UHGV virus genome: UHGV-0084588
Source: a virus
Length of the DNA: 64,000 nt
Strand: one strand, 5' to 3'
Made by a program: the position numbers and the translations under genes. Below, piece by piece: positions 35,448 to 55,637 of this stretch; position 1 is the first letter of the stretch; every line of letters begins with the position of its first letter. The notes beneath the pieces were generated by a model. That model was given only the letters and a program-made list of their open reading frames with translations. It ran no database searches and was not told where the DNA came from.

Positions 35448-36008
35448 GTGACTGCTTACGTACCTGATTTAAGTTTGTCCTCAGCCGAACTAGTGGTCGC
35501 TTTAATCAACCACGATAACGGTTCACGGTTGTCTCTAAGCGAAATCCGTATTAGCAACACTACGGCAAACCCATCCCCGACCACTTCGCGTCGTAACACA
35601 CTGACAGAGATTACAAAAATCAGGAAACCTGATGGTGCTTCTGTAGTTGTTTATTACGACCGTTTGGATGCGGACGAAGTGTTAGCGTCTGAACCTATTT
35701 TGATTTCGTTAGATGGTACTGAAGACAACCTTCGTGACATTTTAGGTGTTGTAAATGAATTCTGCGGAACGAACTTACAACCCGAGGATTTACGTGCTTC
35801 AGATATCACCTTAGGTAAAGAACCCATTGCTGTCAACGTTGCTGACGATTCCCCTGCGTGGATGAATGCGTTTATGGTGACGTTATTTGATACAACCGAA
35901 CGGGCATTGGCAAACGAAGAAGATGCAATCTTCTGTATTGATGATGAGGCCGTTCTTACCTTTGAGGTTCCAGATGACGGTACGGCTGAAGAAAATCCGG
36001 CTATATGA
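35448..36008 (+). CDS. fibre-module accessory protein, member of a six-copy paralogous family
   Basis: GTG at 35448 preceded by gggagg; the track start at 35403 falls inside the terminator hairpin. Paralog of 42163-42678. Confidence 0.5.
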   Translation: MTAYVPDLSLSSAELVVALINHDNGSRLSLSEIRISNTTANPSPTTSRRNTLTEITKIRKPDGASVVVYYDRLDADEVLASEPILISLDGTEDNLRDILGVVNEFCGTNLQPEDLRASDITLGKEPIAVNVADDSPAWMNAFMVTLFDTTERALANEEDAIFCIDDEAVLTFEVPDDGTAEENPAI

Positions 36009-36212
36009 GCTTGACGCTTTTACTGGTAATGGAGGCCAAAGTAAACTTTTATCAAGACTTAGTAAACCCAGATCATGAGAACGCGGAATTGGACATCACT
36101 TTCACGTTAGAAGTTGATGGATTAAAACCAGTATAATAATCCGCTTATAAAAATGTTGGGGAGGTGCTTTACCTCCCCAGATCTTTTAGCTCCAGATAGA
36201 GAATTAAATATC

Positions 36213-39200
36213 ATGGCTAAAGCGGTAAAGAAAATACGTTTACACGATTTGCGTCCATACACCGGGGATATCGGTGAAGGCGTTTTACTTTTTTCGAAAG
36301 ACGAAAAAGATTATAAGTTACCCGTCCGCGAAATCGTTGCGGATATTGACACCGTCAGAAACGCGGTTGCTGATGCACAAACAGCTGCAGCCAAATCGCA
36401 GCAGTCTGCAACAGAAGCTACGCAAGCAAAAAATTTAGCGGAAACCGCGAAGCAACAAACTGACACGTTAGCTTCCACAGTCAGTGAGCAAGCGGGAACC
36501 GTTGCCACTAAAACTGCTGAAGTTAACAAAAAACACGCTGAAGTTTTAGCAGCGAAAACTGCCGTAGATACTGTTTCACAATCAGTAAATGAGAAGGCTC
36601 AAGCTGTCGCCACATCCGAACAATCTGTGACGGCTACGGCGGCTGATGTAACTAAGAAAGCAGAAACGGTTACGCAACAGGCCGGACAAGTTCAACAGAC
36701 GGCTACCAGCGTTGAAAATACCGCAGCTTCAGTCGAGGCCAGTAAAGGTGCAGTGGAGAAAATCGCTGCACAGGTCGCGAAAGATAAAGAAAGCTCAGAA
36801 GGGGCAGCTACGCGTTCGGAGTCAGCTGCCCTACGTGCGGAGAAAATCGCTGCCCAAGGATTAGTTGACGCTACTACAACCGGTAAAGGTATTGTTAAAC
36901 TTAACGATACCCTGACAAGCGATTCCGTGACTGAGGCTGCTACACCGTCCACGGTTAAACAGCTGAACGACGATTTACAGTTAAAAGCCAATAAACATTC
37001 GCCGAATTTTACGGGTAACCCGACATCCCCAAAACCGCCGAAGGACTCGAATGACACGAGTATCTCCACAACGTCCTGGGTGCGTGACGCGATTGCGGAA
37101 TTGGTTGGTTCTTCACCCGAGACGCTAAATACCTTAGCGGAATTAGCTGAGGCGTTAGGTAATGACCCTAACTTCGCAACAACGATCACTGAGGAACTTG
37201 CGCAGAAACAACCTCTCAGCCCGTTACTCACCGCTATTGCCGCAGTCACCACAGCGGCAAACAAACTCATGTATTTCACCGGCAGTAATAAAGTCGGATT
37301 AACAGATTTTACAGAAACGGCCAGATCCTTGTTAGCGAAAGGGTCAACTGCGGATATCATTAACTTCCTGGGTTTGAAACCCACCGTTGATAAAGCAAAC
37401 GGCGCATTACAGAAAAACTCTAACGGTGCTGATATCCCAAATAAAGAAACTTTTGCTCGCAACATCGGCCTATCTCCTGATACCTATCTGCGTTTCCGTG
37501 GCGAAATGCCTGTAGATGCTGATATTAACACATTTGCTCCAGATGCTAATTACACAGGAACATGGTCCAAGTCGACATCAACCAATGCGTCGATGGCAAA
37601 ACACTTCCCAGAAGACGGTGCAGTCGGTTATCTGGAAGTGTATAAAGCGGGCAACTACAGTGGAGCGCAACGTTTTACCTGCCGTAATGGTAACGTGTAC
37701 AACCGTATGTTGTCAGGTGCGTGGAACGGAACTAATGGCCCGTGGTCACCGTGGAGAATGGTAACTACCGGTGTACGTCCGTTATCTACATCGATCGATC
37801 TGAACTCCTTAGGCGGCGCTGAGCACATGGGTAACTGGCGTAACTCGTCCAGTTCGTTAGCGGTGTTCGACAGACATTATCCTGAAGAGGGCGGTAATGC
37901 GCAAGGCGTATTAGAAGTCATGGAAGGCGGTCTTTATGGACGGTTGCAACGATACACCACACGACATGGTACGATGTATGTCCGTGGTTTGACTGCGACT
38001 TGGGATTCTTCTAATCCGCAGTGGGAAGATTGGATTCAGGTTGGGTATCAGGTAGACGGTGCCTACTATAAGGGTAGCTTTAACGACTTAACTAAACCGG
38101 GCCGCTTTAGTGTTACCGGTGAGGCTACAGACAGTCCGTTAACAGACTCTGCTGGCGCAACCTTGCTAGGTGTTTGCGAAGTTACCTTACGCTTAGACGG
38201 TTCAGGCGTTGAACAAAATTATACCACATACGGTACAGGCGCAACTTCGAAAGGTCGCAAGTTCCAACGAATTCGTACAGGAAACGCCTGGAGCGAATGG
38301 CGAGAGATTTTCACATCCTATTCACTCCCGTTGACTTTAGGGATCGGTGGGGTTGCTGCTAAGGTCGATCCGTTAGACTGGCAAACATTCGACTTCGTTC
38401 CTGGCCAGATGATAAGTACACCGTTGAATACCATGAAAAATATTCCTGCGGGAATGGATTGGGGTGTTATCGACGGTAACTTGGTCACTATTCTTGTAGG
38501 GGCGTCGGAGGACACCGGTACTGGCCGGAGTATGTTGGTCTGGCGTGGTACAGTGTCTACTGCTAACTATCGCTTCTTTGCTGTTCGCGTCGCTGGTGAA
38601 AAGGGTAAACGTACTATTACTAGCCGCCAGATGCCCGTATTGAATGCAGCGCATACGTGGGCAGAAAAACAGACCTTTGCAAAAGGGTTATCGGGCGAAT
38701 TGACAGGTAATGCGTCAACGGCAACAAAACTGAAAACAGCCCGTTTAATCGGCGGTGTAAGTTTCGACGGTAGCGGCGACATTAGCCTCCCTGGTGTGAA
38801 CCAACAGGGTAATCAAAACACCTCTGGGAACGCGGGAACCGCAACCAAATTACAAACGGCTCGAAACATCAACGGTGTGAAATTTGATGGGTCTAGAGAC
38901 ATCAATATCAACACGTTGGTAGGACGTGGACGTGTTACTGCACTGTCTGGTTCAAACAAAGGTACACCCGGTATTCAGATGTACGAAGTTTACAATAACG
39001 GTTATCCAACCGCTTATGGTAACTTACTGCATTTGGGTGGCGCTACTGCGCTAGGTGAAGGCGAGCTGTTAATCGGATGGCCGGGGACGAGCGGTGCGCA
39101 CGCGCCTGTTTATATTCGTAGTCGACGTGATACGGCTGATGCACCGTGGTCAGATTGGGCACAAGTTTACACTGCCCGTGACAGCATTCCTGGCGTAAAT

Positions 39201-40655
39201 GCCACCGGTAATCAAGATACTACCGGCAACGCCGCTACCGCGACGAAACTGAAAACCGCTCGCAGGATCGGAGGCGTTACCTTTGACGGTACAGGTGATA
39301 TCAATTTACCGGGCGTTAACCAGCAAGGCAACCAGAATACGACAGGTAATGCAGCGACCGCTACTAAGTTACAAACCGCACGTAAGATCGGCGGTGTGCT
39401 TTTCGATGGGACAAAAGACGTTAATCTTCCTGGCGTAAACCAAACCGGTAACCAATCGACTACGGGGAATGCGGCGACAGCGACTAAGCTCCAGACTGCG
39501 CGAAATATAGGTGGTGTAGCTTTTGATGGTACTAAAGACATCAGTTTACCTGGAGTAAACCAAACAGGTAATCAGGCGACTACCGGAAACGCAGCCACGG
39601 CAACAAAGTTGCAAACCGCAAGAACCATTAACGGTATCGCATTTGACGGCACTAGAAATATATCGTTAGGACCTGCCGATATAGGTTGTCCGGCATCGCC
39701 TAGTGGTTGGTTAGAAACTGGCAAAGATGGCGGCGCAATAACTACAGCACAGCTAGTGACGTTATTGAAAAATAACGGCGCATTTACCACAAGATCGTGG
39801 GTTGCTCGCTGTGCATGGGCTTATGCCGCTAGTGCGTCCATACCACACAGCGAGACGGGTTGTGGTGTTATTCCGTTAGCTGGGGCCGTTATAGAAGTGA
39901 TTAGTAACGGTAATAGCACAAACAACTACACGATCCGTATAACGACTGCCACAACGGCGAGCGTCGGTGGCGCACTCACTAATGCGGAGTTTATCTACGT
40001 ATTTAACGGCGATACATACTCACCAGGCTGGCGTCGTGCTTACAATACGAGAAACAAGCCAACTGCTGCAGAAGTGGGTGCACTACCTTCGGGGGGCGGT
40101 ACTATAGGCGGCGATTTAACCGTTAACGGTAAATTGGCCACTAAATACCCTGATTTTCGAATCGCTTACGGTACCTACGGTTTTATTTTACGTAACGACG
40201 GTGCCAATACCTATTTCTTAGTAACCGACGCCGGACAAGCCGCAACGGGTTCCTGGAACGGATTACGCCCGTTGTCTTTTAATAATTCTAACGGCCAAGT
40301 AAACTTTGGACATAACGTTACTGGCAACGGTAACGGTTCGTTTAACGACGTACAGATTCGTTCTGACCGTCGTAACAAACGTAATCTGGTGAAGCTGGAT
40401 AAAGCTTTGGATCGGTTAGAGTTACTAACCGGTTATTTGTACGAAATTCAGCATCCGGATGACGGCTGGCAGACTTCTGTAGGTCTAATTGCTCAGGACG
40501 CATTAGAAGCGTTACCTGAACTTGTGTCTGAGGATGATGATGCCATTTCAGGCGAAAAACGTTTACGTCTAAACTACAATGGCGTTATTGCGCTGTTAGT
40601 AGAGGGTATGAAAGCGTTGCGTCAAGAGGTTAACGAAATTAAAGGAAGATCCTAA
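36213..40655 (+). CDS. tail fibre protein with Ala-rich coiled coil, 40-aa tandem repeats and C-terminal intramolecular chaperone (S74-like) domain
   Basis: 1480-aa ORF; repeats GNAATATKLQTAR.IGGV.FDGT.DI.LPGVNQ.GNQ.TT; C-terminal SDRRNKRN...GLIAQD...YNGVIALLVEGMKALRQE resembles the self-cleaving chaperone domain of tail fibres and tailspikes. Start moved from 36153 to 36213 by paralogy with 42678. Confidence 0.85.
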   Translation: MAKAVKKIRLHDLRPYTGDIGEGVLLFSKDEKDYKLPVREIVADIDTVRNAVADAQTAAAKSQQSATEATQAKNLAETAKQQTDTLASTVSEQAGTVATKTAEVNKKHAEVLAAKTAVDTVSQSVNEKAQAVATSEQSVTATAADVTKKAETVTQQAGQVQQTATSVENTAASVEASKGAVEKIAAQVAKDKESSEGAATRSESAALRAEKIAAQGLVDATTTGKGIVKLNDTLTSDSVTEAATPSTVKQLNDDLQLKANKHSPNFTGNPTSPKPPKDSNDTSISTTSWVRDAIAELVGSSPETLNTLAELAEALGNDPNFATTITEELAQKQPLSPLLTAIAAVTTAANKLMYFTGSNKVGLTDFTETARSLLAKGSTADIINFLGLKPTVDKANGALQKNSNGADIPNKETFARNIGLSPDTYLRFRGEMPVDADINTFAPDANYTGTWSKSTSTNASMAKHFPEDGAVGYLEVYKAGNYSGAQRFTCRNGNVYNRMLSGAWNGTNGPWSPWRMVTTGVRPLSTSIDLNSLGGAEHMGNWRNSSSSLAVFDRHYPEEGGNAQGVLEVMEGGLYGRLQRYTTRHGTMYVRGLTATWDSSNPQWEDWIQVGYQVDGAYYKGSFNDLTKPGRFSVTGEATDSPLTDSAGATLLGVCEVTLRLDGSGVEQNYTTYGTGATSKGRKFQRIRTGNAWSEWREIFTSYSLPLTLGIGGVAAKVDPLDWQTFDFVPGQMISTPLNTMKNIPAGMDWGVIDGNLVTILVGASEDTGTGRSMLVWRGTVSTANYRFFAVRVAGEKGKRTITSRQMPVLNAAHTWAEKQTFAKGLSGELTGNASTATKLKTARLIGGVSFDGSGDISLPGVNQQGNQNTSGNAGTATKLQTARNINGVKFDGSRDININTLVGRGRVTALSGSNKGTPGIQMYEVYNNGYPTAYGNLLHLGGATALGEGELLIGWPGTSGAHAPVYIRSRRDTADAPWSDWAQVYTARDSIPGVNATGNQDTTGNAATATKLKTARRIGGVTFDGTGDINLPGVNQQGNQNTTGNAATATKLQTARKIGGVLFDGTKDVNLPGVNQTGNQSTTGNAATATKLQTARNIGGVAFDGTKDISLPGVNQTGNQATTGNAATATKLQTARTINGIAFDGTRNISLGPADIGCPASPSGWLETGKDGGAITTAQLVTLLKNNGAFTTRSWVARCAWAYAASASIPHSETGCGVIPLAGAVIEVISNGNSTNNYTIRITTATTASVGGALTNAEFIYVFNGDTYSPGWRRAYNTRNKPTAAEVGALPSGGGTIGGDLTVNGKLATKYPDFRIAYGTYGFILRNDGANTYFLVTDAGQAATGSWNGLRPLSFNNSNGQVNFGHNVTGNGNGSFNDVQIRSDRRNKRNLVKLDKALDRLELLTGYLYEIQHPDDGWQTSVGLIAQDALEALPELVSEDDDAISGEKRLRLNYNGVIALLVEGMKALRQEVNEIKGRS
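38706..38912 (+). repeat. two tandem copies of a 120-bp (40-aa) fibre repeat inside the tail fibre gene
   Basis: Encodes GNASTATKLKTARLIGGVSFDGSGDISLPGVNQQGNQNTS followed by a diverged copy. Confidence 0.7.
39225..39680 (+). repeat. four tandem copies of the 120-bp (40-aa) fibre repeat inside the tail fibre gene
   Basis: Copies begin at 39225, 39345, 39465 and 39585; each encodes GNAATATKLQTAR.IGGV.FDGT.DI.LPGVNQ.GNQ.TT with synonymous codon drift. Confidence 0.8.
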
Positions 40656-41437
40656 TGGCAGTTGTCGGCGTAGGTGGTTGGATTGGTTCTTCAGCAAAAG
40701 CTGAAGCTGGTAACGAATGGATGTCTGGCGCGATGCGCACACTTGGTGTGCCGGTTCCAGGCTGGATGTCGCAATTGGCGGGAAAATCAAAAGAGGTCCA
40801 TTATTCTATTGGTGCTAACCATAGCTATAATAAGGATACTCTTATTAACTATTTACGTTCTTTAGGCTCTACTGCTGTCGTTGTGACTATTACGGGGGAT
40901 TTAGTGTCCCATAGTAGCACGGTTCCTTGTTTAGAATTCCCTAGCAATCTTCCAAATTCGTATATTACCCTCATCATCAATCCTGGGGTTACAGTATACG
41001 GCAGAGGAGGCAACGGCGGTTCTAACTCACCAGGCGGTGCAGGTGGAACCGCAATACAGAACGGAATAGGAAACAGACTGCGTATAACCAACCGTGGCGC
41101 TATTGCCGGAGGCGGTGGCGGCGGTGGCGGCGGTAACAGGGGTAGACTAACATTTGGTGGTGGCGGTGGTCGCCCATTCGGTGCTGGTGGGTCTTCCTCT
41201 CATATGAGTTCCGGTGCGGCTGCTGGTACTATTTCCGCTCCTGGTAGAGGATCTGTTGGTGAGGGGTCTCTTAGTGCATATACAGGCGGTTCGGGTGGTA
41301 ATGTCGGTGCTGCTGGAGGAAGATGTAATACTCATGGTAACGGTACAGAATATAACGGCGGAGCAGCTGGTAAAGCTGTTACTGGTAATGCGCCAAGATG
41401 GGACGCAGTAGGTGCAATATATGGTTCACGTGTTTAA
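40655..41437 (+). CDS. glycine-rich protein (260 aa), likely fibre-associated
   Basis: Start overlaps the fibre gene stop (TAATG); contains GGGGGGGGGNRGRLTFGGGGGRPFGAGGSS. Confidence 0.6.
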   Translation: MAVVGVGGWIGSSAKAEAGNEWMSGAMRTLGVPVPGWMSQLAGKSKEVHYSIGANHSYNKDTLINYLRSLGSTAVVVTITGDLVSHSSTVPCLEFPSNLPNSYITLIINPGVTVYGRGGNGGSNSPGGAGGTAIQNGIGNRLRITNRGAIAGGGGGGGGGNRGRLTFGGGGGRPFGAGGSSSHMSSGAAAGTISAPGRGSVGEGSLSAYTGGSGGNVGAAGGRCNTHGNGTEYNGGAAGKAVTGNAPRWDAVGAIYGSRV

Positions 41438-41497
41438 TTTGAAAAAGTATGGGGGTACTCACTCCCCTCCTCGCATCTTTCAAAAGGTGGGGGTAAA

Positions 41498-42010
41498 ATG
41501 GCGGTAGCATCAGGATGGGTCGGATCTTCAGCTAAGAATGAAACTGGCGAACAATGGATGAGCGCTGCGGGTAGTAAATTAGGATTGGGTAGACCATTTA
41601 TGATGAGTCAAATGGTGGGCCGATCTACGGGTTGTAAAATTGCGACCGCTTACTACAAAGGGAATCCTCCTGATAAAGTTGAAAACTGGGGGGCCGTAGG
41701 TTCAGATTGGCCATTGGCTGAAAAGAACAAAGGCACAATTACTGGTGCTTCGAGCTGTGGTTTAGGTCGTTTAGTGGGGATCGTACTTACGCAAGCTCAC
41801 TACATTTCTGGTGTTCCACCCACTGCGGCTTTATACATCGCAGGAGGAAGGGCAAGTAATATTACAGTAACAGTTGGTGGGGTCTCACAAGTTTTCACCT
41901 ATAATAGTGTTATTAACGGTTTTCACTATTACTGGCAAGGAACACCTAGTTCGGCCTTTATAGCAGCAATGAAGAGAACGGGTGTTACACAAGATTTGAA
42001 AATTAGTTAA
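41498..42010 (+). CDS. paralog of the glycine-rich protein (N-terminal domain only, 170 aa)
   Basis: N-terminus MAVASGWVGSSAKNETGEQWMSAA aligns with MAVVGVGGWIGSSAKAEAGNEWMSGA of 40655-41437. Confidence 0.55.
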   Translation: MAVASGWVGSSAKNETGEQWMSAAGSKLGLGRPFMMSQMVGRSTGCKIATAYYKGNPPDKVENWGAVGSDWPLAEKNKGTITGASSCGLGRLVGIVLTQAHYISGVPPTAALYIAGGRASNITVTVGGVSQVFTYNSVINGFHYYWQGTPSSAFIAAMKRTGVTQDLKIS

Positions 42011-42162: not shown

Positions 42163-42678
42163 ATGGGGCAATTCGTGCCGGATTTGTCGTTAACTTCACT
42201 TAACATGGTTATTTCACTGGTTAACCATGACCTCCAGCTCGACTTGCAAGAGAACGAGGTTGAAGTCAGCGACGTAAAGACCAGTAACGAAATGGATCGT
42301 GACACCACTGCTGTTGTAAAGATAAAACGTCCGGACAACAGAACGTTGCAGATATATTACAACCGTTTAACCGCAGAGCGGTGGTTAAACCAGCAACCTA
42401 TCCTAGTAAAGGTTTCCGGTAATGGCTTTACCGCACACGATCTAATCGACGGAATTAACGCGGCTTGTGGTTGTAATTTACAACCCGACGATCTTACCGA
42501 CGAATCATTTACCGTAGGGAAAGACGCTGTAACGTTACAGGTTTCACCCAACTCGTTAGGTTATAAAGGCCAATTCTCCGTTCTGGTTTTCGGTAACGAT
42601 GAAGAAGCTGCTGTAGTAAAAGACAACGATTTAATCGTTACCGCAGATAACCGTGTCTTAACATTCGGAGGCCGCTAA
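42163..42678 (+). CDS. fibre-module accessory protein, paralog of 35448-36008
   Basis: Shares PDLSL..., IYYNRLTA and CGCNLQPDDL motifs with 35448-36008; SD gggag upstream. Confidence 0.55.
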   Translation: MGQFVPDLSLTSLNMVISLVNHDLQLDLQENEVEVSDVKTSNEMDRDTTAVVKIKRPDNRTLQIYYNRLTAERWLNQQPILVKVSGNGFTAHDLIDGINAACGCNLQPDDLTDESFTVGKDAVTLQVSPNSLGYKGQFSVLVFGNDEEAAVVKDNDLIVTADNRVLTFGGR

Positions 42679-43298
42679 TGGCTGAACTGGTAGGAAAGGT
42701 GCGCATTCATGAACTGGAGACACTTTCAGAAGACATCACGGGTGTAGTAGTCTTAGCGTCTAAGGAACAAACTGAATACCAACTCCCGATTGAGAAATTA
42801 GGGGGTACCGAGGTTACAGTGAGTCCGTCAGCGAATAACATCCTTAAGTCTAACAACGATGGGTTGTTTGTTGACGGCACTCATCCGATTATACCAAAAA
42901 TGGATGCAAAAACCTTATCGGGAAATATGGTGGTAGAAAAAACGTTGACAGGTGGTGCGGTAATCTGCAAAACAACAGTTGACGTTAATAATAGACTGGG
43001 GGTTTCGCAATTATCTGGAGTGTCAATTTATAGCCAGTGTCTGTTGGAAAATAAATTGGTTTATCTGGGAGAAGACGGCAGTATTATTGATGCGTACTTC
43101 TACATTAGTAATACAAAGACCACAGCCAGTACAATAACCCACACCATTCGTGTTGTTTTAGCGAAGATACCCTCTAAAGTTATCGATATCACCGATTTGT
43201 CTGAAACCGAAGTACAATACGAGAATAGTAATTTACCTGTTAAGATCGTTATTAAACATCTTGCAGGGACAACACTTTCCCAGAACGGAATGAAATAA
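42678..43298 (+). CDS. putative second receptor-binding or fibre protein sharing the N-terminal domain of the 1480-aa fibre (206 aa)
   Basis: N-terminus MAELVGKVRIHELETLSEDITGVVVLASKEQTEYQLPIEKL aligns with MAKAVKKIRLHDLRPYTGDIGEGVLLFSKDEKDYKLPVREI of 36213; terminator downstream. Confidence 0.5.
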   Translation: MAELVGKVRIHELETLSEDITGVVVLASKEQTEYQLPIEKLGGTEVTVSPSANNILKSNNDGLFVDGTHPIIPKMDAKTLSGNMVVEKTLTGGAVICKTTVDVNNRLGVSQLSGVSIYSQCLLENKLVYLGEDGSIIDAYFYISNTKTTASTITHTIRVVLAKIPSKVIDITDLSETEVQYENSNLPVKIVIKHLAGTTLSQNGMK

Positions 43299-45605: not shown

Positions 45606-45980
45606 ATGTCATTACTGTTATACAAATTCAGATGTTGGCTAGACACTTCGTTTAAAACCTGGGCTTGCGGCAAGAATGTCACAACGGTAGTTAAATCGGG
45701 TGACTGGTATACGGAAATTATTACATTAGCAAATGGAGGATTGCAAAACGTACAAGTTCGTAACGTAGTTGTTAGAATAGGACGTGAAGGAGGTGCAATC
45801 TTCAACTCTGAATACTATCAAGTTTCTGCCCTGGAGTTAAAAAACGGTCCGATTTTATTTATCGGTACAGCACAACACCTTTACGATACAGTTGTTAAGT
45901 TTGCTGAAAGGGTAAAACGTTTAAATGATTCGCTTAGTAAGTTTATTAAAGAAACTGAACGAACTACGGTGGAGATTTAA
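45606..45980 (+). CDS. hypothetical protein, tandem paralog A (124 aa)
   Basis: Shares W.CGK.V..VVK.GDWYTE..T..NG.L.NV..R.V.V..GR.GG..F.SE with the next ORF. Confidence 0.5.
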   Translation: MSLLLYKFRCWLDTSFKTWACGKNVTTVVKSGDWYTEIITLANGGLQNVQVRNVVVRIGREGGAIFNSEYYQVSALELKNGPILFIGTAQHLYDTVVKFAERVKRLNDSLSKFIKETERTTVEI

Positions 45981-45983
45981 AAG

Positions 45984-46370
45984 ATGCGTTTATTTTACTT
46001 AAAAAGGCGTTTGTCATTAAAAGCCCAACTGTTTGTTAACGAGAAAGTTAAAAACTGGCTGTGCGGTAAAAGGGTACAATATGTCGTTAAAGAAGGAGAC
46101 TGGTATACGGAGGTTGTGACTTCCCCTAACGGTGAACTTATAAACGTTACTATTCGTGACGTTATGGTTAAGGTTGGTAGGGGTGGCGGTCGGTTGTTTG
46201 AATCGGAAACTATAAGAGTCGCTGCTAAACAATTGAAAGATGGTCGAGTTTTATTCAATGTTACCGCCCAGAAATACTACGACAATTTATTCGAGTGTCA
46301 ACGAGCAATGGACAGAATGACCCGTGAGATGCGAAGAATGCACATTACGGAGATCACAATAGGAGTTTAA
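45984..46370 (+). CDS. hypothetical protein, tandem paralog B (128 aa)
   Basis: See 45606-45980. Confidence 0.5.
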   Translation: MRLFYLKRRLSLKAQLFVNEKVKNWLCGKRVQYVVKEGDWYTEVVTSPNGELINVTIRDVMVKVGRGGGRLFESETIRVAAKQLKDGRVLFNVTAQKYYDNLFECQRAMDRMTREMRRMHITEITIGV

Positions 46371-47260: not shown

Positions 47261-47307
47261 TTCAGATATATATTACCTAGGTGAGAGTTCAGTTACTCTC
47301 ACTTAAC
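47261..47307 (+). promoter_or_regulatory. conserved promoter-like element with perfect palindrome
   Basis: TTCAGATATATATTACCTAGGTGAGAGTtcagttACTCTCACTTAACG upstream of 47332. Confidence 0.45.
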
Positions 47308-47331
47308 GAAACCATTTTAGGAGAATATACC

Positions 47332-47826
47332 ATGAACTTCACTAGACTTGATTACACTAACGAATTAGTCGACAAAGAAAAATACAAATTCACGATTGAC
47401 TTGGGTTACGGGCTGTGGGACGTAGAAAAAGATATTCTACACAAAGAATTCCGTGAGCAATTCGGTGCATTATTCTGCGCAGGATTCCGTAGAAATTCTA
47501 TTGATATCGGTTATGGTGCAACACCGTATAGCGACGAAGAAATGTTTACGCTGATAACACAGATTATCGGAACTCGTGTGGCTAAACGTTTTAATTATTC
47601 TAACGAACTTGTTTCGAAAGAACATTACAAGTTCACTGTTAGACTACCTGTTCCTCTCTTTAAAGAAGATAAGAATAGACTCTATAAAGCCCTACAAACC
47701 GAATTCGGTAAAACGCTCAAAATAGGGTTCCGCAGTCGTAGTATCGATATCGGAATTAGCGTAGACGTGTGCAGTGACGATGACCTTTACGAATTAGTTT
47801 CGGAAGTTATCGGAAAACACCTCTAA
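47332..47826 (+). CDS. protein built from two tandem copies of an 80-aa domain (about 164 aa)
   Basis: Halves align (Y.NELV.KE.YKFT..L...L......L.K.....FG.....GFR..SIDIG); track start 47281 lies inside the promoter-like palindrome, so the ATG at 47332 with SD aggag is preferred. Confidence 0.5.
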   Translation: MNFTRLDYTNELVDKEKYKFTIDLGYGLWDVEKDILHKEFREQFGALFCAGFRRNSIDIGYGATPYSDEEMFTLITQIIGTRVAKRFNYSNELVSKEHYKFTVRLPVPLFKEDKNRLYKALQTEFGKTLKIGFRSRSIDIGISVDVCSDDDLYELVSEVIGKHL

Positions 47827-47870: not shown

Positions 47871-48647
47871 ATGAAAACTATCGAGTTTAAGAATAGTAGT
47901 CTTTGGGCATACACGCACATCATTACGAGTTTCCTGAGAAACGTTACTCCACATCTTGCTTATCAGATTTATGGGAATGAGCTCACTATCGGTGGTTTTA
48001 ACGAGGATGAATTAAAACGAGCAAAAGAGTTCATTGACGATGTTCTTCGTGGTGAAGCAACGTGTTTAGTTGCAAGTTACGTTGCTAAAGACAAAGGAAG
48101 ATTAAACGTCATGGCAATTTTCAGATCGTTCTCCGAAAAAGTATACGAAGTTGAGAAGATTAGTCATACCGTTTATATTGTTTACTTTAAACGTTCGGCG
48201 GAGAAAAACGCTGATAAAATTCTGGAGTATTTCGACTGTAACCCGGGGGAAGGTATGGATGTCTATACGCTCGGTTACGATGGGGTACCTCACCGGAATA
48301 ACCTTATTCGCATTGACGAACCTTTTTCAGTCAATGACGATTCCTCGCCTATAGAGATGGTTCTGGTACACAAAGATCGTTTCGCGCATTACGACTCTGA
48401 TACTATTCAACGTGTCCTGAACAACGTTAATATACAGTTTTCACAAACCGAGCACTTAGTACGTGCATGTCTTAGGTCTAATGGCACAACATCATTTTTC
48501 TTCGAACGTCAAACCGTTTGGCAAACTTATCTGGCTCTGATGGAAGAACTTGATAGGATCGAGCCAGTTCAGGTTGGTGCAAATTGCTTATATTGGATAA
48601 AAACAAAAGGGTTCATGAATGAAAACGCTCAATTCAGATTTGCGTGA
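47871..48647 (+). CDS. hypothetical protein (258 aa)
   Basis: ORF with SD aaggaaa upstream. Confidence 0.5.
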   Translation: MKTIEFKNSSLWAYTHIITSFLRNVTPHLAYQIYGNELTIGGFNEDELKRAKEFIDDVLRGEATCLVASYVAKDKGRLNVMAIFRSFSEKVYEVEKISHTVYIVYFKRSAEKNADKILEYFDCNPGEGMDVYTLGYDGVPHRNNLIRIDEPFSVNDDSSPIEMVLVHKDRFAHYDSDTIQRVLNNVNIQFSQTEHLVRACLRSNGTTSFFFERQTVWQTYLALMEELDRIEPVQVGANCLYWIKTKGFMNENAQFRFA

Positions 48648-49047
48648 TTACATCCGTCAGTACCCAGCCAGTATTCCTGTACTGGCTTCACTTACGCTTT
48701 CAGGTACTGACGTTAACATCTTAACGGTGGAACAGTTCCACGAGATAATAAAAACCGCCTATAACTCCATTACCGCAACGTCAGTACGTAAACGTTGCGA
48801 TTATCCCGACGGGGATTTCGGCACCGAGATGTTTACCGATTACGCAGTTGCGTTTCTGTTAGGACGACACTGCCTCGATAAACTTAACACTGCAGTAGAA
48901 GGGGAAACAGTGACGGAAATAGTCAACGCTTGGCAGCAACGTATTCTGAGCGACCCTTACTGCCGCCAGGCGTTAAAACGAATGTCCACAACGGCGATTA
49001 CAAACGACCAGCGTGCTTTAGAGTTCTTTAAGCACAACTACAGCTAA
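48619..49047 (+). CDS. hypothetical protein, paralog of 49908-50339 (142 aa)
   Basis: N-terminal L.D.IR.YIR..P....VLA.....TD....L...E...EI..T.Y..I shared with 49908-50339. Confidence 0.5.
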   Translation: MKTLNSDLRDYIRQYPASIPVLASLTLSGTDVNILTVEQFHEIIKTAYNSITATSVRKRCDYPDGDFGTEMFTDYAVAFLLGRHCLDKLNTAVEGETVTEIVNAWQQRILSDPYCRQALKRMSTTAITNDQRALEFFKHNYS

Positions 49048-49907: not shown

Positions 49908-50339
49908 ATGTTTTTCGTATTAAATGATGAAATCCGTAACTACATTCGTAACAATCCGATTGCTCTGGGCGTTTTAGCAGGTTTCTGTCGCCCAAATACT
50001 GACTTCGATTTAGTTAAGTTAGAAGAATATCAGGAAATTGTGAATACTAACTACATGCACATCTGTAGCTGGGGTAAACGTCCTCGTGAAGAGTACCCTG
50101 TAGGTGAGTTAGGTGACACTATGCATCGTGACCAGAATCTGATGCACGAATTCGTTGAATACACACTGGAAAATCTTAACTATCCGCTTCTGGTCGACAC
50201 TGTACCAGAAATGGTTGACGAATGGTTAAGTCGTGTTTACAATGACCCTACTACCAACAAGTTACTGAGTCAGATGTCGCAAACTTCTCGTGATATCGAC
50301 ACTCGCACCCTAATGTACTTAGCACACAACGTTCGCTAA
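49908..50339 (+). CDS. hypothetical protein, paralog of 48619-49047 (143 aa)
   Basis: See 48619-49047; conserved leader acctaaaggagtatta upstream; terminator downstream. Confidence 0.5.
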   Translation: MFFVLNDEIRNYIRNNPIALGVLAGFCRPNTDFDLVKLEEYQEIVNTNYMHICSWGKRPREEYPVGELGDTMHRDQNLMHEFVEYTLENLNYPLLVDTVPEMVDEWLSRVYNDPTTNKLLSQMSQTSRDIDTRTLMYLAHNVR

Positions 50340-50505: not shown

Positions 50506-51354
50506 ATGTCTCTTACGTCAAAACAGAAACTGCTAAAACTCATCAACACTGAAAACAATATTGTTCCGCCATTGACCTTCAGTGATGTTGATATCGGCGA
50601 ACCTACTGGTACTGGGGTTGATACCCAGGTGGTTCTGACTTCTAAACTCAAAGGCGATGAGTCTACTACTTTAACGGTGACTTACCATCGTCGTAATTTG
50701 CCAGAATACCTAACAGGCGAGTTGGTATTCGGTAACGACGGTGTTGTAACTGCTGCAGATTTGCTTAATGCAATCAACGCAAAATACGATTTAAATATTC
50801 TGCCGTCAGATATCGTTGATGCGAAAGTTGAAGGTAAAACCCACCAACTTGCCGCTAACGAGAAATCCTACGAGTGGTGTGGCGAAGTGACACTTACGCT
50901 ACGCGATCCTATTGATCTGGCTAAACTGCTACCTGTTACTCAATTAGAAAACCTGGTAGAGTATCCGTCCACCAAGAAAGGTAACGCTGCGGTTTATTCT
51001 TATCCGATTGACTTCACCGCAGAAAAAGATTACCTTGATCCGATTACCATTAACGACACCGTAGACTTAGTAGAGTTAGCTACTAAACTGACTAACGTTG
51101 TTGACGAGAAATGGGTAAGCGTACCTAAGAACGCTGCTAATAACTTGTTCGGTGCTAAGGTTATCTACGATGGCCCTACCGCAGGTTTCGAAGGCGCAAA
51201 TGCGAAGTACACGCGTGTGCTGGTACTCGCCCTAAGCGGTATGTGTTCTAACCTGACCGGTAAACTGTTAATTCACTTTAACGGAACCGATCGTCCGAAG
51301 TCGAAGATTGAATTAGCCAAGACTAATTCGGTCTTACCGGGATTCTTAGATTAA
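50506..51354 (+). CDS. member of a six-copy paralogous protein family, possibly structural (282 aa)
   Basis: N-terminal pattern L..LIN..N......T..DV..GEP.....G..T.V.LT.........(Y/H).R shared with 51368, 54511, 55107, 35448 and 42163. Confidence 0.55.
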   Translation: MSLTSKQKLLKLINTENNIVPPLTFSDVDIGEPTGTGVDTQVVLTSKLKGDESTTLTVTYHRRNLPEYLTGELVFGNDGVVTAADLLNAINAKYDLNILPSDIVDAKVEGKTHQLAANEKSYEWCGEVTLTLRDPIDLAKLLPVTQLENLVEYPSTKKGNAAVYSYPIDFTAEKDYLDPITINDTVDLVELATKLTNVVDEKWVSVPKNAANNLFGAKVIYDGPTAGFEGANAKYTRVLVLALSGMCSNLTGKLLIHFNGTDRPKSKIELAKTNSVLPGFLD

Positions 51355-51367
51355 GAGGATTACAGTA

Positions 51368-51844
51368 ATGACCAGTCAAGAAACTATCTTCGACCTTATT
51401 AAAAAGGCTAACCCAGACGCCGAGCTCGACACCGCCAAAGTCACATTGGGTGAGCCCGTCGTAAGTACCGGTACGTACAACACCGAAATTACGGTTGCGC
51501 CGGTGAAGAATCTCGGTTATGTTAATAAGCAAACGTTCCAGTATAACCGCATTGATGCAGGTTTGTATTTCCTCAACGTATTGCCGAAACTGTTAGTTGA
51601 AACAGCCACCACGACTGCGGACTTGCTGCCTGTAATTAACGAGCAGTATGGCTTAACCCTTACCGAAGACGATGTGTGGGTAGAGCAGGTTGGTGCGTTA
51701 CCGCTAGACGGCAGTGCAATCGAGCACGGTATTTTCTTCCGCCCAGAGTGTCTAACCTGGGTCGGTGGTTTTACAGTGCGTGTTGCGCGTAAACCGTCTG
51801 TCGAGACACCGCCAGCTAAGCCATCGCGCGCTAAGAAGAAATAA
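51368..51844 (+). CDS. member of the same paralogous family (158 aa)
   Basis: Family pattern as above; terminator downstream. Confidence 0.55.
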   Translation: MTSQETIFDLIKKANPDAELDTAKVTLGEPVVSTGTYNTEITVAPVKNLGYVNKQTFQYNRIDAGLYFLNVLPKLLVETATTTADLLPVINEQYGLTLTEDDVWVEQVGALPLDGSAIEHGIFFRPECLTWVGGFTVRVARKPSVETPPAKPSRAKKK

Positions 51845-51848: not shown

Positions 51849-51884
51849 AGGGTGGGGTAATCCCACCCTCTTTTCTTTTTTTGT
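51849..51884 (+). terminator. rho-independent terminator before the lysis cassette
   Basis: GGGTGGGG-taat-CCCACCC followed by tcttttctttttttg. Confidence 0.5.
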
Positions 51885-51906: not shown

Positions 51907-52497
51907 ATGGCCGAACGTTGGACTAAAGAAGGTATTATTGAATCAAAAACAGATTTAGAGGGTGGGTACGTGAACGACCCTGACGATAAAGGTGGGGAAA
52001 CCTGTCACGGGGTAACACTGACAACTGCACGCGAATACGGGTACAAAGGAAGAATGAAAGATCTGACCCGTGCGCAAGCGTTTGATATTTACGATCGTGG
52101 TTGGTGGAAGAAACTTAAACTCGATGAGATTTTCGCTATCTCGCCGATACTCGCAGACCGGATGTTTGATTTTGGTATTAACTCTGGCCGTGTTAACTGT
52201 GTGAAATCATTACAACGTATTCTCAACGTTTTAAATAACGAAGGGAAACTTTACGCAGATATTGACACCGACGGTGGCATGGGCCCTAAAACGCTAGGTG
52301 CCCTGAATGCTTATCTGAATTACCGTAAAGGCGAGGGATTAGGCATCTTAATCTTTGCGTTAATCTCACACCAGGTAACCTACTACACGGAAATCTCCGA
52401 AAAGCGTAAGAAGAATGAAAAATTCGCTTACGGCTGGTACGGACGCGTGTACAGGGAAATGCCGGATTATGTAGTGAAGGCGGGGTTAGTAAAATGA
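51907..52497 (+). CDS. endolysin, glycoside hydrolase family 108 muramidase with peptidoglycan-binding C-terminal domain
   Basis: N-terminal EGGYVNDPDDKGGETCHGVT is the hallmark GH108 motif; the C-terminal half resembles the associated PG-binding domain. Confidence 0.8.
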   Translation: MAERWTKEGIIESKTDLEGGYVNDPDDKGGETCHGVTLTTAREYGYKGRMKDLTRAQAFDIYDRGWWKKLKLDEIFAISPILADRMFDFGINSGRVNCVKSLQRILNVLNNEGKLYADIDTDGGMGPKTLGALNAYLNYRKGEGLGILIFALISHQVTYYTEISEKRKKNEKFAYGWYGRVYREMPDYVVKAGLVK

Positions 52498-52613
52498 ATT
52501 GGTTTGCTAAACTCTTAGCACTATTGTGGAAAGCGTTAACGTCTGGACGGAAACGTAAAGACGAAAAGCGTGGGTACGAATTTTTCTGGTTTCTATAAGG
52601 GAAGGTGTGGGTA

Positions 52614-53279
52614 ATGGAGAAGCTTCAATATAAACGTTTAGACAATAAGTGGTTTGTATTAACGGAGGATTACCATTATCCGTTTACGTTACGCGAGATT
52701 TATCACGACCACGTACACTTAGACCGTGCGGTTTATTTAACGGGTGTATTGCCTGACACGCAACTGTGGTTAACAGCACCGAAAGGGTTCGTTACCGATT
52801 TAGCGTCAATTCCTGATCACCTCCAGGGAATTTTCCATCCTGACGGACCGTGGGCACCTGCGGCCTGTATTCACGACTTACTCTATCAAAAATGCAACAC
52901 AGAGCGTAGCTATCCCATGACACCGGGTGGTAACGTTTCGCGTTTTATCGATAAAGAGTTCTCTGACTTAACTTTCCTGCGTATTATGCAGTCGTTGGAA
53001 ATCTCGCCTTATATCTGCCAAACATTTTATAAGGCTGTTGTTGAATTCGGCTGGGATGCCTACGTAGATCCTAATGCAAAGCCATCCTACAACACTAACG
53101 CGTTTCGTACGTTAGATTACAATCGAAACTATTTATTCGTTCGCGAGTTTAAGGAACCTGCAATCCCTGACCACGAACGTATTGATATCACCACAGATTG
53201 TCCCGTTAATGTCAAATACCTGAACATCAAACGGGCATTTCTGTCTGGGAGGGAAGATGTTTCATCCAAATCCGAGTAA
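52614..53279 (+). CDS. DUF1353-like phage protein
   Basis: GFVTDLASIP...HD.LY resembles the DUF1353 signature as I recall it; ATG at 52614 preferred over the track start 52605. Confidence 0.4.
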   Translation: MEKLQYKRLDNKWFVLTEDYHYPFTLREIYHDHVHLDRAVYLTGVLPDTQLWLTAPKGFVTDLASIPDHLQGIFHPDGPWAPAACIHDLLYQKCNTERSYPMTPGGNVSRFIDKEFSDLTFLRIMQSLEISPYICQTFYKAVVEFGWDAYVDPNAKPSYNTNAFRTLDYNRNYLFVREFKEPAIPDHERIDITTDCPVNVKYLNIKRAFLSGREDVSSKSE

Positions 53280-53772
53280 CTTTAAACTCAGAGAGTTAGT
53301 ACCACAGTCCTATATTGCCAAATACGGTGATTCCGCAATTCGGTTTATGAATCCGTTGTTAATGATTTCCCTACAACAGATTCGTAACCGTTTCGGTAGA
53401 ATGGTGATTAACTCAACTGCCGCACAACAGCGCGGACTAAGAACCTTAGATTTCTTTATTAATCAAGAAAAGCCTAAGGGTGGTAGTTATAAACAACGTG
53501 CGTTGCAGCTTTACGCCGATTCAGGAAGTCAACACAAATTCGGTAACGCTATTGATGCAACGTTGTTGGATAGCACCGTAAAACAGGTTCACGACTATAT
53601 CGCTGCTAACCCTGACGAGTTTCCGTTCATTCACTTTATTGAATGTGATATCAGTTGGTTACACATCGACGTTCGTAACCAACCTAACATTACTTTCTGG
53701 TCACCAAACCGTGGCACTGTGAAGGTTGTTAAGCAAAAGCCAATCGATTGGAGCGCCTTAGTCGAGATTTAA
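53257..53772 (+). CDS. peptidase M15-like cell-wall hydrolase
   Basis: SQHKFGNAIDA fits the S.H..G.A.D zinc-binding motif and WLHID fits the second His motif of M15/VanY-type peptidases. Confidence 0.55.
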   Translation: MFHPNPSNFKLRELVPQSYIAKYGDSAIRFMNPLLMISLQQIRNRFGRMVINSTAAQQRGLRTLDFFINQEKPKGGSYKQRALQLYADSGSQHKFGNAIDATLLDSTVKQVHDYIAANPDEFPFIHFIECDISWLHIDVRNQPNITFWSPNRGTVKVVKQKPIDWSALVEI

Positions 53773-53855
53773 CTATTTCTAAGGTGTTTATACCTTATTT
53801 TGTATAAAGACGCTTAGAATGCGTTTTACGCACGATTTGGCGGTTAAAATGAATA

Positions 53856-53892
53856 TACCCTACTCCCGTTAAGGAGTAGGGTACTTTTTATT
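53856..53892. terminator. bidirectional terminator between convergent genes
   Basis: TACCCTACTCC-cgttaa-GGAGTAGGGTA with a flanking A-run and ctttttattg; lies between 53257-53772 (+) and 53888-54379 (-). Confidence 0.65.
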
Positions 53893-54379
53893 GTTCCGCA
53901 GGATGGAGCATTGTTCCAGTGTCAGGCGCTACACCTTCTATACAGCGGAAGAAAGTAATGCCTTTACCATCGCCCGTTTTATATTCTAAAGTAGAATACG
54001 CAAATGTTGGTGTTTTTGAAAGCAAACCATTTACACGGTAGTAACGTTGTCCCGTGATAGGATCAATATTCCCATTAACTTTACCTAATAAATCTTTATA
54101 AAGTTGGGGCGACTCAATCTTACCATTTGGCCAAGTGGCTACCCAATTAGCACCAGTATCGACTACGGTTACTGAGCCTAACATTAGATTAGTCGAGCTG
54201 ACGACAGGTTTGTAATTTGCAAAATCTTGCTCTACACCCATGCAGGTGTAAATAACCATGTCGTGTGGCTCCACCGGCACAGTCGAGAATTGGCCGTTAC
54301 CATTTGGTTGTAAGGCACATCCTGCTAATGAAAAAACACCAAGCATAACGATAAGAAAACGCTTTATCATACTTTTCAC
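53888..54379 (-). CDS. lipoprotein (163 aa)
   Basis: Signal peptide with lipobox LAGC (MKSMIKRFLIVMLGVFSLAGCALQ); lone minus-strand gene between plus-strand genes; bidirectional terminator downstream. Confidence 0.65.
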   Translation of the reverse strand: MKSMIKRFLIVMLGVFSLAGCALQPNGNGQFSTVPVEPHDMVIYTCMGVEQDFANYKPVVSSTNLMLGSVTVVDTGANWVATWPNGKIESPQLYKDLLGKVNGNIDPITGQRYYRVNGLLSKTPTFAYSTLEYKTGDGKGITFFRCIEGVAPDTGTMLHPAEQ

Positions 54380-54434: not shown

Positions 54435-54463
54435 GTCATAACAATTAACACCACTTCTATAAT
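54435..54463 (+). promoter_or_regulatory. sigma70-like promoter candidate
   Basis: Perfect -10 TATAAT (54458-54463) with a weak -35 gtcata at 17-bp spacing, about 45 nt upstream of 54511. Confidence 0.3.
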
Positions 54464-54510
54464 CCGAACAATACTATGCAATCCACCCTGCCAACCACGA
54501 GGTAAATACG

Positions 54511-55041
54511 ATGGCTAAAACCTTCCAACAGCAACTTATTGACGCTGTTAATACCAAAAACAGTACCCTGGACCCCGCACTCACCGTAGCTGATGTTGAC
54601 TTTGGTGCTGTTGCTGAGTTCACCGGAGAAGCTGGCCGCAACACTAAAATTACCCTGACCGCCAAGGAAGAAAGCCAGCACTTCAAGGGCGAGAAAGAAT
54701 TCCACTATACTCGTCTTTCATGCGACATCGTTGGTGAAGTTGAAGTAACTGCACCTGCTACCGATTTCGATTCAGCAGCGAAAATCCTGGCGAAAGTTAA
54801 CGCAGCCATGGCTGAGAAAGGGTACACCGATGACGAGTTCGGTGAAAACGACCTGCAAAGTATTTCTCGTGAAGAAGAAGGCAAAACCATTTACGTAGTA
54901 ACTGTTGTGGCCGGACACCTGAAGTTCCTGCCAGGCACTGTTGCAACGTATAAAGTTACTCCTCCGGCTCCTGAGAAAGTAGCACTGGACGGTCTGGAAG
55001 GTGAACTGGATAGCTTCACTGCACCGCTTCCTAAAGAGTAA
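54511..55041 (+). CDS. member of the six-copy paralogous family, codon-biased (176 aa)
   Basis: Family pattern; host-like codon bias suggests high expression; a sigma70-like -10 element lies upstream. Confidence 0.6.
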   Translation: MAKTFQQQLIDAVNTKNSTLDPALTVADVDFGAVAEFTGEAGRNTKITLTAKEESQHFKGEKEFHYTRLSCDIVGEVEVTAPATDFDSAAKILAKVNAAMAEKGYTDDEFGENDLQSISREEEGKTIYVVTVVAGHLKFLPGTVATYKVTPPAPEKVALDGLEGELDSFTAPLPKE

Positions 55042-55106
55042 TTGAACCGGGGGGGGGGTAACCTCCCCCGATATTTCTTTAACCCGCATTTTAAGGATTT
55101 AAGATA

Positions 55107-55637
55107 ATGGCCGCTACTAACCAGATGATGTTGGTCGCGCTTTATAATGCTGCTAACACTGAGCTACCACATCAGATTACTGATAAAGAAGTGTCCTTTG
55201 GTCTCCCTACTGCGCTGGAAGGCAAAAGTAAGAATACCAAAGTTACCATGACTGCACTACCGGGTTCTGAGAATTTCAAAGGCGCAATCGAGCTGCATTA
55301 CGATCGTCTGGAGCCGGGTGTTGTAGGACGTATTGAACTAACTGACGATTTGTCTCGTTGGGAAGATCAAAACGAATTGCGCGCATGGTTACAATATTAC
55401 ATCAACAAAGTAAAACCTGACGACGCTATCGCACCTGGTGACGTTGTGTACAGCACCGAAGACCAGAAAGACGAACATGATAACGTCACACTGCGTACGG
55501 TAACGTGCACCGTTACTGAAAAGAACCTCCGTTATAAACCGGGTGTAATGGCAACTTTCGTAATTACGCCGAAAGTTGTTGACAATCGTATTGACCTGGC
55601 CACTACCAACGGCGAGCTGGACGGCTTTACGTCCTAA
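55107..55637 (+). CDS. member of the six-copy paralogous family (176 aa)
   Basis: Family pattern; bidirectional terminator downstream. Confidence 0.6.
   Translation: MAATNQMMLVALYNAANTELPHQITDKEVSFGLPTALEGKSKNTKVTMTALPGSENFKGAIELHYDRLEPGVVGRIELTDDLSRWEDQNELRAWLQYYINKVKPDDAIAPGDVVYSTEDQKDEHDNVTLRTVTCTVTEKNLRYKPGVMATFVITPKVVDNRIDLATTNGELDGFTS

Follow-up and report, generated by a model that had tools for sequence, protein, structure and literature searches.

The DUF7941 family of phage proteins has already been described under several names: a Pfam entry, four PHROGs (1037, 2935, 3589 and 4862) and paralog family B of the Salmonella phage SPN3US. Family B comprises about 20–21 members (gp83, gp138–154, gp160 and gp237, with gp122 as a candidate) and has been described as potentially the largest set of paralogues carried by one phage (PMC5105663; PMC5694885; PMC10052503). 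A preprint on phage Goslar (April 2026) names DUF7941 as a chimallivirus family and describes ten members in Goslar (gp22, gp23 and eight more) along with gp126, gp127 and gp143 of phiKZ. Two of the Goslar proteins reach ~580 and 2140 copies per virion, and the ten paralogues together exceed 2500 copies. AlphaFold 3 (AF3) predicts head-to-tail dimers and oligomers, including one for phiKZ gp126–gp127, purified Goslar gp22 assembles into filaments hundreds of nm long, and a "fibre cloud" anchored on the baseplate is proposed to serve host recognition (bioRxiv 10.64898/2026.04.21.720040). In the phiKZ atlas, gp127 is placed on the peripheral baseplate, at the gp139 band's outer end (PMC13250141). 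The two literatures do not cite each other and they disagree about the same family: SPN3US proteomics places it on the head, while phiKZ cryo-electron microscopy and the Goslar model place it on the baseplate. Here, we describe the DUF7941 paralogues encoded in a 64,000-nucleotide stretch of the virus genome UHGV-0084588 (the window).

The window encodes at least seven such proteins, and on balance we lean towards reading these seven as structural particle proteins that form chains, with one type, related to SPN3US gp122, coupling to fibres. As in Goslar, this is a multi-copy family in a chimallivirus in which a few members appear highly expressed, and the two architectures known from Goslar and phiKZ recur here, one protein resembling gp22/gp127 and the others gp23/gp126. 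The window has fewer members than the ten of Goslar. It lacks fusions of the family domain to carbohydrate-binding or hydrolase domains and has, in their place, two stand-alone members that each pair with a separate fibre gene. To the published descriptions we add the equivalence of family B and DUF7941, a seventh member, an internal duplication in the N-terminal domain, a conserved candidate donor peptide, a duplicated pair of socket and anchor genes with a putative recombination scar, and the collapse of a SPN3US gene array to two genes. The Goslar preprint, which never names SPN3US, contains neither the link to family B nor the gp160-type C-terminal peptide nor the N-terminal-domain duplication; the fibre-gene pairing and the duplication look new, but modest. 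A pared-down set of members in clear classes would be a simpler system in which to study the attachment site, chain formation and fibre mounting.

DUF7941 paralogues in the window and their relatives

Members are referred to below by their start coordinate:

15304..15831, + strand: DUF7941 member of the gp83 type, 175 aa, with ALDGF at 15790..15804 (DUF7941 50.5 bits; phrog_2935 E 2.5e-48; 64% identity to SPN3US gp83, E 3.5e-81)
20065..20703, + strand: candidate divergent eighth member, 212 aa, with GELDVW at 20635..20652 near the C-terminus (weak HMM similarity)
35448..36008, + strand: gp122-type member, 186 aa, GTG start, with VLTF at 35952..35963 (DUF7941 68.6 bits; 44.7% identity to SPN3US gp122)
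42163..42678, + strand: second, more diverged gp122-type member, 171 aa, with VLTF at 42655..42666 (DUF7941 62.5 bits; 30.8% identity to gp122)
50506..51354, + strand: full-length member, orthologue of gp138, 282 aa, with LENLVEYP at 50944..50967 and VLPGF at 51331..51345 (DUF7941 178.6 bits over residues 2–259; 44% identity to gp138)
51368..51844, + strand: member with the N-terminal domain only, 158 aa, with a basic Pro/Lys tail (DUF7941 104.2 bits; 38% identity to the N-terminal domain of gp141 over 156 aa)
54511..55041, + strand: gp160-type member, 176 aa, with the tail peptide GELDSF at 55000..55017 and a hairpin at 55048..55070 after the gene (DUF7941 43.9 bits; 45% identity to gp160)
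55107..55637, + strand: second gp160-type member, 176 aa, with GELDGF at 55611..55628 and a bidirectional hairpin at 55651..55681 after the gene (DUF7941 37.9 bits; phrog_4862 E 4.3e-34; 36% identity to gp160)

All seven confirmed members score above the gathering cut-off of the Pfam DUF7941 model (PF25613, 27 bits), which served as the threshold for membership. The preliminary description, made from the sequence alone, had proposed six paralogues between 35448 and 55637 with shared N-terminal motifs. BLASTP links 35448 with 42163 (E 8e-34) and 54511 with 55107 (E 3e-22), and 50506 bridges the subfamilies, with matches to 35448, 42163 and 54511 at 4e-5 to 4e-7. Some pairs, such as 51368 against 54511 or 55107, have no significant pairwise match, and we therefore built hidden Markov models (HMMs) from which each subfamily in turn was omitted and ran them against the 656 six-frame open reading frames (ORFs) of the window. 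These recovered every omitted member, with E values from 4e-12 to 7e-3. An HMM built from the six copies also found a seventh, 15304..15831 (E 4e-11), outside the range first considered. The six are genuine paralogues, their similarity being significant by both the curated HMM and the leave-out profiles, and only the count was too low. The shared motifs likewise stood: in the seven-way alignment, the R of (Y/H)xR and one D in the second lobe are invariant. That ORFs otherwise unrelated resemble each other through composition or chance, as pairs such as 51368 and 54511/55107 taken singly might suggest, is refuted by the independent curated HMM scores, by the recovery of each ORF with leave-out profiles and by a phiKZ gp127 fold common to two independent predicted models.

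A profile of the seven sequences matched chain 0 of PDB entry 9xqd (PHIKZ127) at E 7.5e-9, and the predicted N-terminal domain matches residues 1–150 of that chain. Among PHROGs, the proteins fall into phrog_2935, phrog_1037, phrog_3589 ("virion structural protein") and phrog_4862; weak Pfam matches were to Spiralin (21.9 bits, below cut-off) and Ribosomal_L9_C. Only protein-level searches succeeded, megablast and blastn of the family regions returning no match in the phage collection. All six ORFs of the first set are on the + strand with a Shine–Dalgarno-like sequence 5' of each. For 35448 the credible start is a GTG with GGAGG 8 nt upstream, and the resulting N-terminus matches that of 42163. 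On this evidence, the six ORFs and 15304 are paralogous DUF7941 proteins, corresponding to SPN3US paralog family B. We also considered the fibre attachment domain of the phiKZ gp131 type as the identity of the shared N-terminus and dropped it, given that the PDB profile search found gp127 only. PHIKZ127 was the sole PDB match of the profile at E<=1, a search in which the deposition of the N-terminal chains of gp131, gp133, gp134 and gp135 was unchecked. Family C of SPN3US (gp168–170), to which the gp131 type corresponds, is separate from family B (PMC5694885).

The ORF at 20065..20703 may be a divergent eighth member. Over ~80 aa at the N-terminus it resembles lobe 1 of the domain, it was the best non-member match of the leave-out HMMs (E 2e-4 to 0.27), and comparison with a 19-sequence profile by hhalign gave a weak result (probability 35%, E 4e-4). 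It has no Pfam match, and its poor alignment to SPN3US gp87 has no bearing on membership.

Best BLASTP matches to SPN3US gp83, gp122, gp138, gp141 and gp160 ranged from E 3.5e-81 to 1.6e-24 (31–64% identity), with the gene neighbourhood kept. These matches show that family B and DUF7941 are one family, whose orthologues correspond one to one. The SPN3US gene order runs gp137, gp138 to gp155, endolysin, DUF1353, gp158, gp159 (- strand), gp160, DUF4376 (- strand) and radical SAM (- strand), and the window follows it. The main difference is that the 18-gene, ~20-kb tandem array gp138–gp155 of SPN3US (L001, 20001..39954), in which at least 13 genes match the family HMM, is represented here by only two genes (50506..51844), whereas gp160 and gp122 are each duplicated. 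The window has seven or eight members against ~21 in the whole SPN3US genome. Compared with phiKZ, the order portal (- strand), gp128, DUF7941 gene is common to both, and the region of 15304 is syntenic with gp129/128/127: it lies between a homologue of the gp128 wedge (13101..15296; PDB 9xqs_C, E 2e-83) and a homologue of the gp139 spoke protein (15824..16711; E 1e-33). By sequence, the window member closest to phiKZ gp127 (PDB 9xqd; PMC13250141) is 50506 (E 3e-12, C-terminal domain included) and not the syntenic 15304; phiKZ gp126 is closest to 54511 and 55107 (E 4e-7).

The window encodes a major head protein of the phiKZ type, a portal, a virion RNA polymerase subunit and a DnaB-like helicase, and its core genes share ~77% nucleotide identity with SPN3US and with Erwinia phage Asesino. 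The genus Seoulvirus belongs to Chimalliviridae. Gene content and identity indicate that the window derives from an SPN3US/Asesino-like chimallivirus, i.e. a phiKZ-like jumbo phage; the chimallin gene itself is absent from these 64 kb. A protein identical to 54511, in the same gene order, is encoded on a 220,786-bp metagenome scaffold (ZHAN15-1_SAMEA2737849_METAG-scaffold_21); at 220.8 kb this scaffold is shorter than the SPN3US genome (240.4 kb) by roughly the length of the ~20-kb array. Relatives with ~90% identity were found on 220–228 kb contigs in assemblies of several Salmonella enterica serovars, gp160-type relatives with 54–57% identity on contigs of that size in Escherichia coli assemblies, and a copy with 88% identity on a 72-kb contig of an assembly labelled Shigella flexneri (loci L007–L009; proteins P0005, P0194, P0198 and P0237). 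Their presence in isolate assemblies suggests that enterobacterial cultures commonly carry such jumbo phages.

Domain anatomy, tail peptides and proposed chain formation

Two architectures are present, as in the described DUF7941 proteins: 50506 consists of an N-terminal domain, a linker and a C-terminal domain, and the other members of the N-terminal domain plus a tail of 10–25 residues. In the AlphaFold 2 (AF2) model of 50506, the N-terminal domain (residues 1–136) has a predicted local distance difference test score (pLDDT) of 83–91, residues 137–212 form a disordered linker (pLDDT <50), and the C-terminal domain (213–263, pLDDT 54–74) is followed by a disordered tail with VLPGF. Foldseek aligned this model to 9xqd_0 at E 1e-4, with a template modelling (TM) score of 0.62. 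The AF2 model of 54511 (mean pLDDT 91.5, predicted TM score 0.76) shows a two-lobed N-terminal domain, and for 54511 and 55107 alike phiKZ gp127 was the only match among solved structures. The gp127 fold and the two lobes of the N-terminal domain are common to all seven proteins. The two lobes resemble each other: profile–profile comparison by hhalign over 19 paralogues gave a probability of 93% (E 2.9e-7). The N-terminal domain is, as judged from these profiles, an internal duplication of a ~60-residue unit of one helix and three strands.

Short motifs follow the domain and differ by type: full-length proteins carry L-x-G-(L/F)...P, those of the gp160 type (A/D)L-x-G-x-x-GELDGF, those of the gp83 type ALDGF and those of the gp122 type D(D/E)xVLT(F/Y/I), the last kept in six gp122-like sequences. 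Across nine non-redundant gp160-like sequences, GLEGELD(G/S)FT is the most conserved block of ten residues (entropy 0.60 bits, against 1.0–1.4 in the domain body), and the tail peptide has a pLDDT of 85–89 in the gp160-type model. In 50506, the linker carries the motif LENLVEYP and a second such peptide, VLPGF, stands at the extreme C-terminus. Only 51368 has no linker or tail-peptide motif of any type.

A HMMER scan over 1.84 billion representatives returned 2377 clusters at E<=1e-3, of which 605 reached E<=1e-10; the 150 best matches are 101 to 2908 aa long. Many relatives contain two or three full modules per chain (e.g. P0045 and P0050), and others are fused to LamG or BNR-like domains (P0054 and P0065). 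P0067 (1496 aa) and P0088 (1166 aa) are tandem arrays of a ~70-residue half-unit, with up to 11 matched stretches in P0088, and one of the two ends in a DUF285 domain of the Mollicutes type. DUF7941 is also present in surface-type proteins of Spiroplasma, secreted or membrane-anchored (PMC13375240, 2026). Given the tandem arrays and the Spiroplasma occurrences, the module is not exclusive to chimalliviruses, although the Goslar preprint states otherwise. Natural fusions of several modules and repeat arrays would fit a module that chains, and together with the conserved tail peptide they lend indirect support to head-to-tail self-association.

We propose that the tail peptide or linker of one subunit would dock on the N-terminal domain of the next, head to tail, and that such docking could build flexible homo- and hetero-oligomeric chains on the exterior of the particle. 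The gp160-type proteins 54511 and 55107, codon-optimised and each followed by a hairpin, would be the abundant subunits; 50506 (gp127/gp138 type) would be a full-length subunit of lower copy number, and 15304 (gp83 type) a short one, also of lower copy number, that keeps the ALDGF tail. The protein 51368, having no donor peptide, could only end a chain. The gp122-type proteins 35448 and 42163 would stand on the tail side and couple to fibre proteins through a 42-residue N-terminal anchor that these share.

The codon usage of 54511 and 55107 had been described as host-like and taken as a sign of high expression, and both points hold up. By the fraction of optimal codons of the E. coli type (Fop), 54511 (0.718) and 55107 (0.651) take second and fourth place among 64 genes, with the major capsid gene at the top (0.854). 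SPN3US gp160, the orthologue, is among the most abundant particle proteins, with 1750 peptide–spectrum matches (PSM) for a protein of 18.5 kDa, compared with 2239 for gp141, 439 for gp83 and 282 for gp138 (PMC10052503 Table S2). Rough scaling against the PSM of capsid, sheath and tube gives ~250–540 copies of gp160, and this abundance agrees with the codon ranks of 54511 and 55107. The region holds more terminator-like hairpins than expected (15 against 5.6 +/- 2.3), and they lie directly 3' of 51368 (51849..51869), 54511 and 55107, with one 5' of 50506.

The gp122-type genes and their fibre cassettes

Two family members had been noted to precede fibre genes, as is the case: 35448 is located 5' of a gene for a 1480-aa fibre, and the stop of 42163 overlaps the start of a gene for a 206-aa protein with a fibre anchor. 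The features of this region are as follows:

35974..36078, + strand: 34-codon remnant of a gp123-like gene start (MTVRLKKIRLYELDAFTGNGG...), overlapping the 3' end of the 35448 gene (anchor-module HMM E 8.7e-5; three-frame translation)
36213..40655, + strand: long fibre, 1480 aa, of which the first ~42 aa (36213..36338) are a gp123-type anchor and the rest a T4-like fibre with a C-terminal S74 chaperone (Gp34_trimer, Peptidase_S74 and Phage_fiber_2 domains)
42678..43298, + strand: 206-aa protein with a gp123-type N-terminal anchor and a different C-terminal domain (anchor HMM E 6.8e-25; residues 47–205 match the C-terminus of phrog_33169)

The anchor of ~42 residues is common to 36213, 42678 and SPN3US gp123 (E 2e-7 to 3e-11) and has no PDB match. 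Both genes bearing it lie directly 3' of a gp122-type member. In SPN3US, Asesino, pEa_SNUABM_29 and SPAsTU, the gp122-like gene abuts a gene for a ~155-aa "tail fiber protein", followed by a gene for a ~1000-aa tail protein; the pair of gp122-like gene and anchor gene is thus kept in these four phages and occurs twice in the window. A GC-rich hairpin (36158..36178) stands between the gp123-like remnant and the fibre gene at 36213. The remnant, the start of a third gene of this kind, is probably the scar of a fibre-cassette replacement, in which the T4-like fibre and its gp38 adhesins would have come in.

The fibre gene opens a host-recognition cassette of T-even style (36213..42010), here in a chimallivirus, which consists of the 1480-aa fibre, a gp38 adhesin and a second adhesin. 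The gp38 adhesin matches PF05268 at 237 bits and its gene has ~80% nucleotide identity to gp38 of Krischvirus RB49/JSE; the second adhesin (41498..42010) has 90.8% nucleotide identity to Escherichia phage CMS-2020a. These identities point to recent exchange with T4-like coliphages.

Position on the particle and neighbouring genes

The expectation that these are virion proteins is borne out by the SPN3US orthologues gp83, gp138, gp141 and gp160, all identified in the particle by mass spectrometry (PMC5694885; PMC10052503 Table S2). Their position can be judged from a comparison of wild-type (WT) particles with heads of a tail-tube mutant purified on step and buoyant-density CsCl gradients, in which protein levels are normalised as a head/WT ratio (PMC10052503 Table S2). 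The ratio is 1.20 for gp83, 1.45 for gp138, 1.44 for gp141 and 1.23 for gp160, alongside 1.39 for the capsid protein, whereas it is 0.018 for gp82, 0.056 for gp84 and 0.027 for the sheath (PMC10052503 Table S2). Filaments of free protein would not be expected to band together with DNA-filled heads; most SPN3US members therefore appear physically attached to heads. Not all members behave in this way: gp237 has a ratio of 0.06, and gp237 and gp122 go with tails (PMC10052503 Table S2).

Several points weigh against the seven proteins being chain-forming particle components as proposed, with gp122-type members coupled to fibres. The levels of SPN3US gp83, gp138–154 and gp160 in DNA-filled tailless heads are full (head/WT 1.1–1.7), which fits poorly with a chain anchored purely at the baseplate, and the baseplate proteins encoded beside gp83 (gp82 and gp84) fall to 0.02–0.06 (PMC10052503 Table S2). 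The Goslar preparation also captured non-virion assemblies, according to its authors (bioRxiv 10.64898/2026.04.21.720040). The codon ranks depend on the list of optimal codons used, head-to-tail docking is inferred from conservation and the Goslar preprint, and the gp122-type genes could encode assembly factors, SPN3US gp122 having been scored as "non-virion" (22 PSM; PMC10052503 Table S2).

The Goslar model could apply unchanged, with all members on the peripheral baseplate at the ends of gp139-like spokes, as long flexible filaments that enlarge the radius of host capture. The modelled position of phiKZ gp127 at the tip of the gp139 band on the outer baseplate (PMC13250141), matched by the window profile and models through PDB 9xqd, speaks for this, as do the Goslar gp22 filaments and the >2500 copies of its ten paralogues (bioRxiv 10.64898/2026.04.21.720040), the fusions of relatives to LamG or BNR-like domains and the location of 15304 between gp128-like and gp139-like genes, which suggests a baseplate site for that protein. 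The retention of gp83, gp138, gp141 and gp160 in SPN3US heads from which gp82, gp84 and sheath are lost is hard to reconcile with it; moreover, the Goslar baseplate map has no density for family proteins (bioRxiv 10.64898/2026.04.21.720040), and gp127 of phiKZ is an AF3 model docked in a 4.4 A map (PMC13250141). We therefore regard a baseplate position for every member as rather unlikely. The synteny-based notion that 15304 is the functional equivalent of the baseplate protein gp127 is undercut by the retention of its SPN3US orthologue gp83, which purifies with heads and not tails, and by the closer similarity of gp127 to 50506.

For 35448 and 42163, the alternative is that they are not particle components but assembly factors for the downstream fibre proteins. 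SPN3US gp122 was missing from the first proteome (PMC5694885) and later scored as non-virion, as said above, and the genes abut or overlap those of the fibre anchors, which suggests translational coupling. Nonetheless, every one of three wild-type replicates contained gp122 (7, 7 and 8 PSM) and no head replicate did, following gp123 and gp124: wild-type and tailless-head PSM are 22 and 0 for gp122, 55 and 0 for gp123 and 530 and 20 for gp124, so that all three are missing from tailless heads or depleted there more than 18-fold, a tail-side pattern (PMC10052503 Table S2). Rough scaling gives ~3–7 copies of gp122, compatible with a low-copy adaptor, and both window proteins retain the full N-terminal domain of their structural relatives. 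Of the known fibre chaperone families, such as Tfa, gp38 and gp57A, none was matched by 35448 or 42163: their sole Pfam match was DUF7941, and PHROGs annotates them as "virion structural protein". An assembly role is, on this evidence, unlikely.

The abundant members might instead be packaged within the capsid and leave it together with the DNA on ejection. They are retained in the tailless DNA-filled heads of two different mutants (PMC5105663; PMC10052503), and gp141 and gp160 carry the label "Head ejection?" in the first proteome (PMC5694885 Table 1). Set against this, none of the head proteins that the prohead protease cleaves belongs to the family (PMC5694885), one homologue is external on the phiKZ baseplate (PMC13250141), and Goslar gp22, once purified, assembles into filaments that reach hundreds of nm (bioRxiv 10.64898/2026.04.21.720040). 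Fusions to domains of the carbohydrate-binding type and the secreted or membrane-anchored proteins of Spiroplasma (PMC13375240) point to an exposed extracellular module, and we consider an internal location quite improbable.

Taken together, we conclude that DUF7941 proteins probably form chains on the particle, attached at sites that vary from member to member and perhaps from phage to phage, and that the Goslar "baseplate cloud" is not simply transferable to the SPN3US-like lineage. The host-interaction role of the family, also raised in the preliminary description, is hypothetical, as put forward in the Goslar preprint. By functional analogy only, T4 Hoc and similar adhesin modules exposed on capsids or fibres are comparable, in that they look non-essential, are surface-exposed, vary in copy number and are presumed to give weak adhesion. 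Tentatively, and with less confidence than in chain formation with fibre coupling as such, we suggest that the family might be split into a head-bound class and tail-side sockets of the gp122 type able to mount any protein with the anchor MAxxVKKxRLHEL...EYKLP. The cassette would have been duplicated, and one copy would have captured a long fibre of the T-even type, tipped with gp38 adhesins, from Krischvirus-like coliphages, leaving the 34-codon scar. If this holds, DUF7941 modules would be a general mounting scaffold for swapping host-recognition proteins among chimalliviruses.

Among the neighbouring genes, the pairs 50506/51368 and 54511/55107 flank, as previously noted, the "lysis cassette" (51907..54379). 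It contains a GH108 endolysin with PG_binding_3, a DUF1353 protein (tail assembly chaperone according to PHROGs), an endolysin-like protein (phrog_894) and, on the minus strand, a lipoprotein gene that includes a lipobox; in related contigs, an extra 34-codon ORF is called 3' of the endolysin. Two neighbouring radical SAM genes, also present in SPN3US, lie on the - strand at 56877..59118 beside the gene for a DUF4376 protein. The translations contain further paralogue pairs, namely neighbours of 124 and 128 aa (45606..46370) and a pair of 142 and 143 aa (48619..49047 and 49908..50339), and the 181-aa ORF at 47281..47826 holds an internal repeat.

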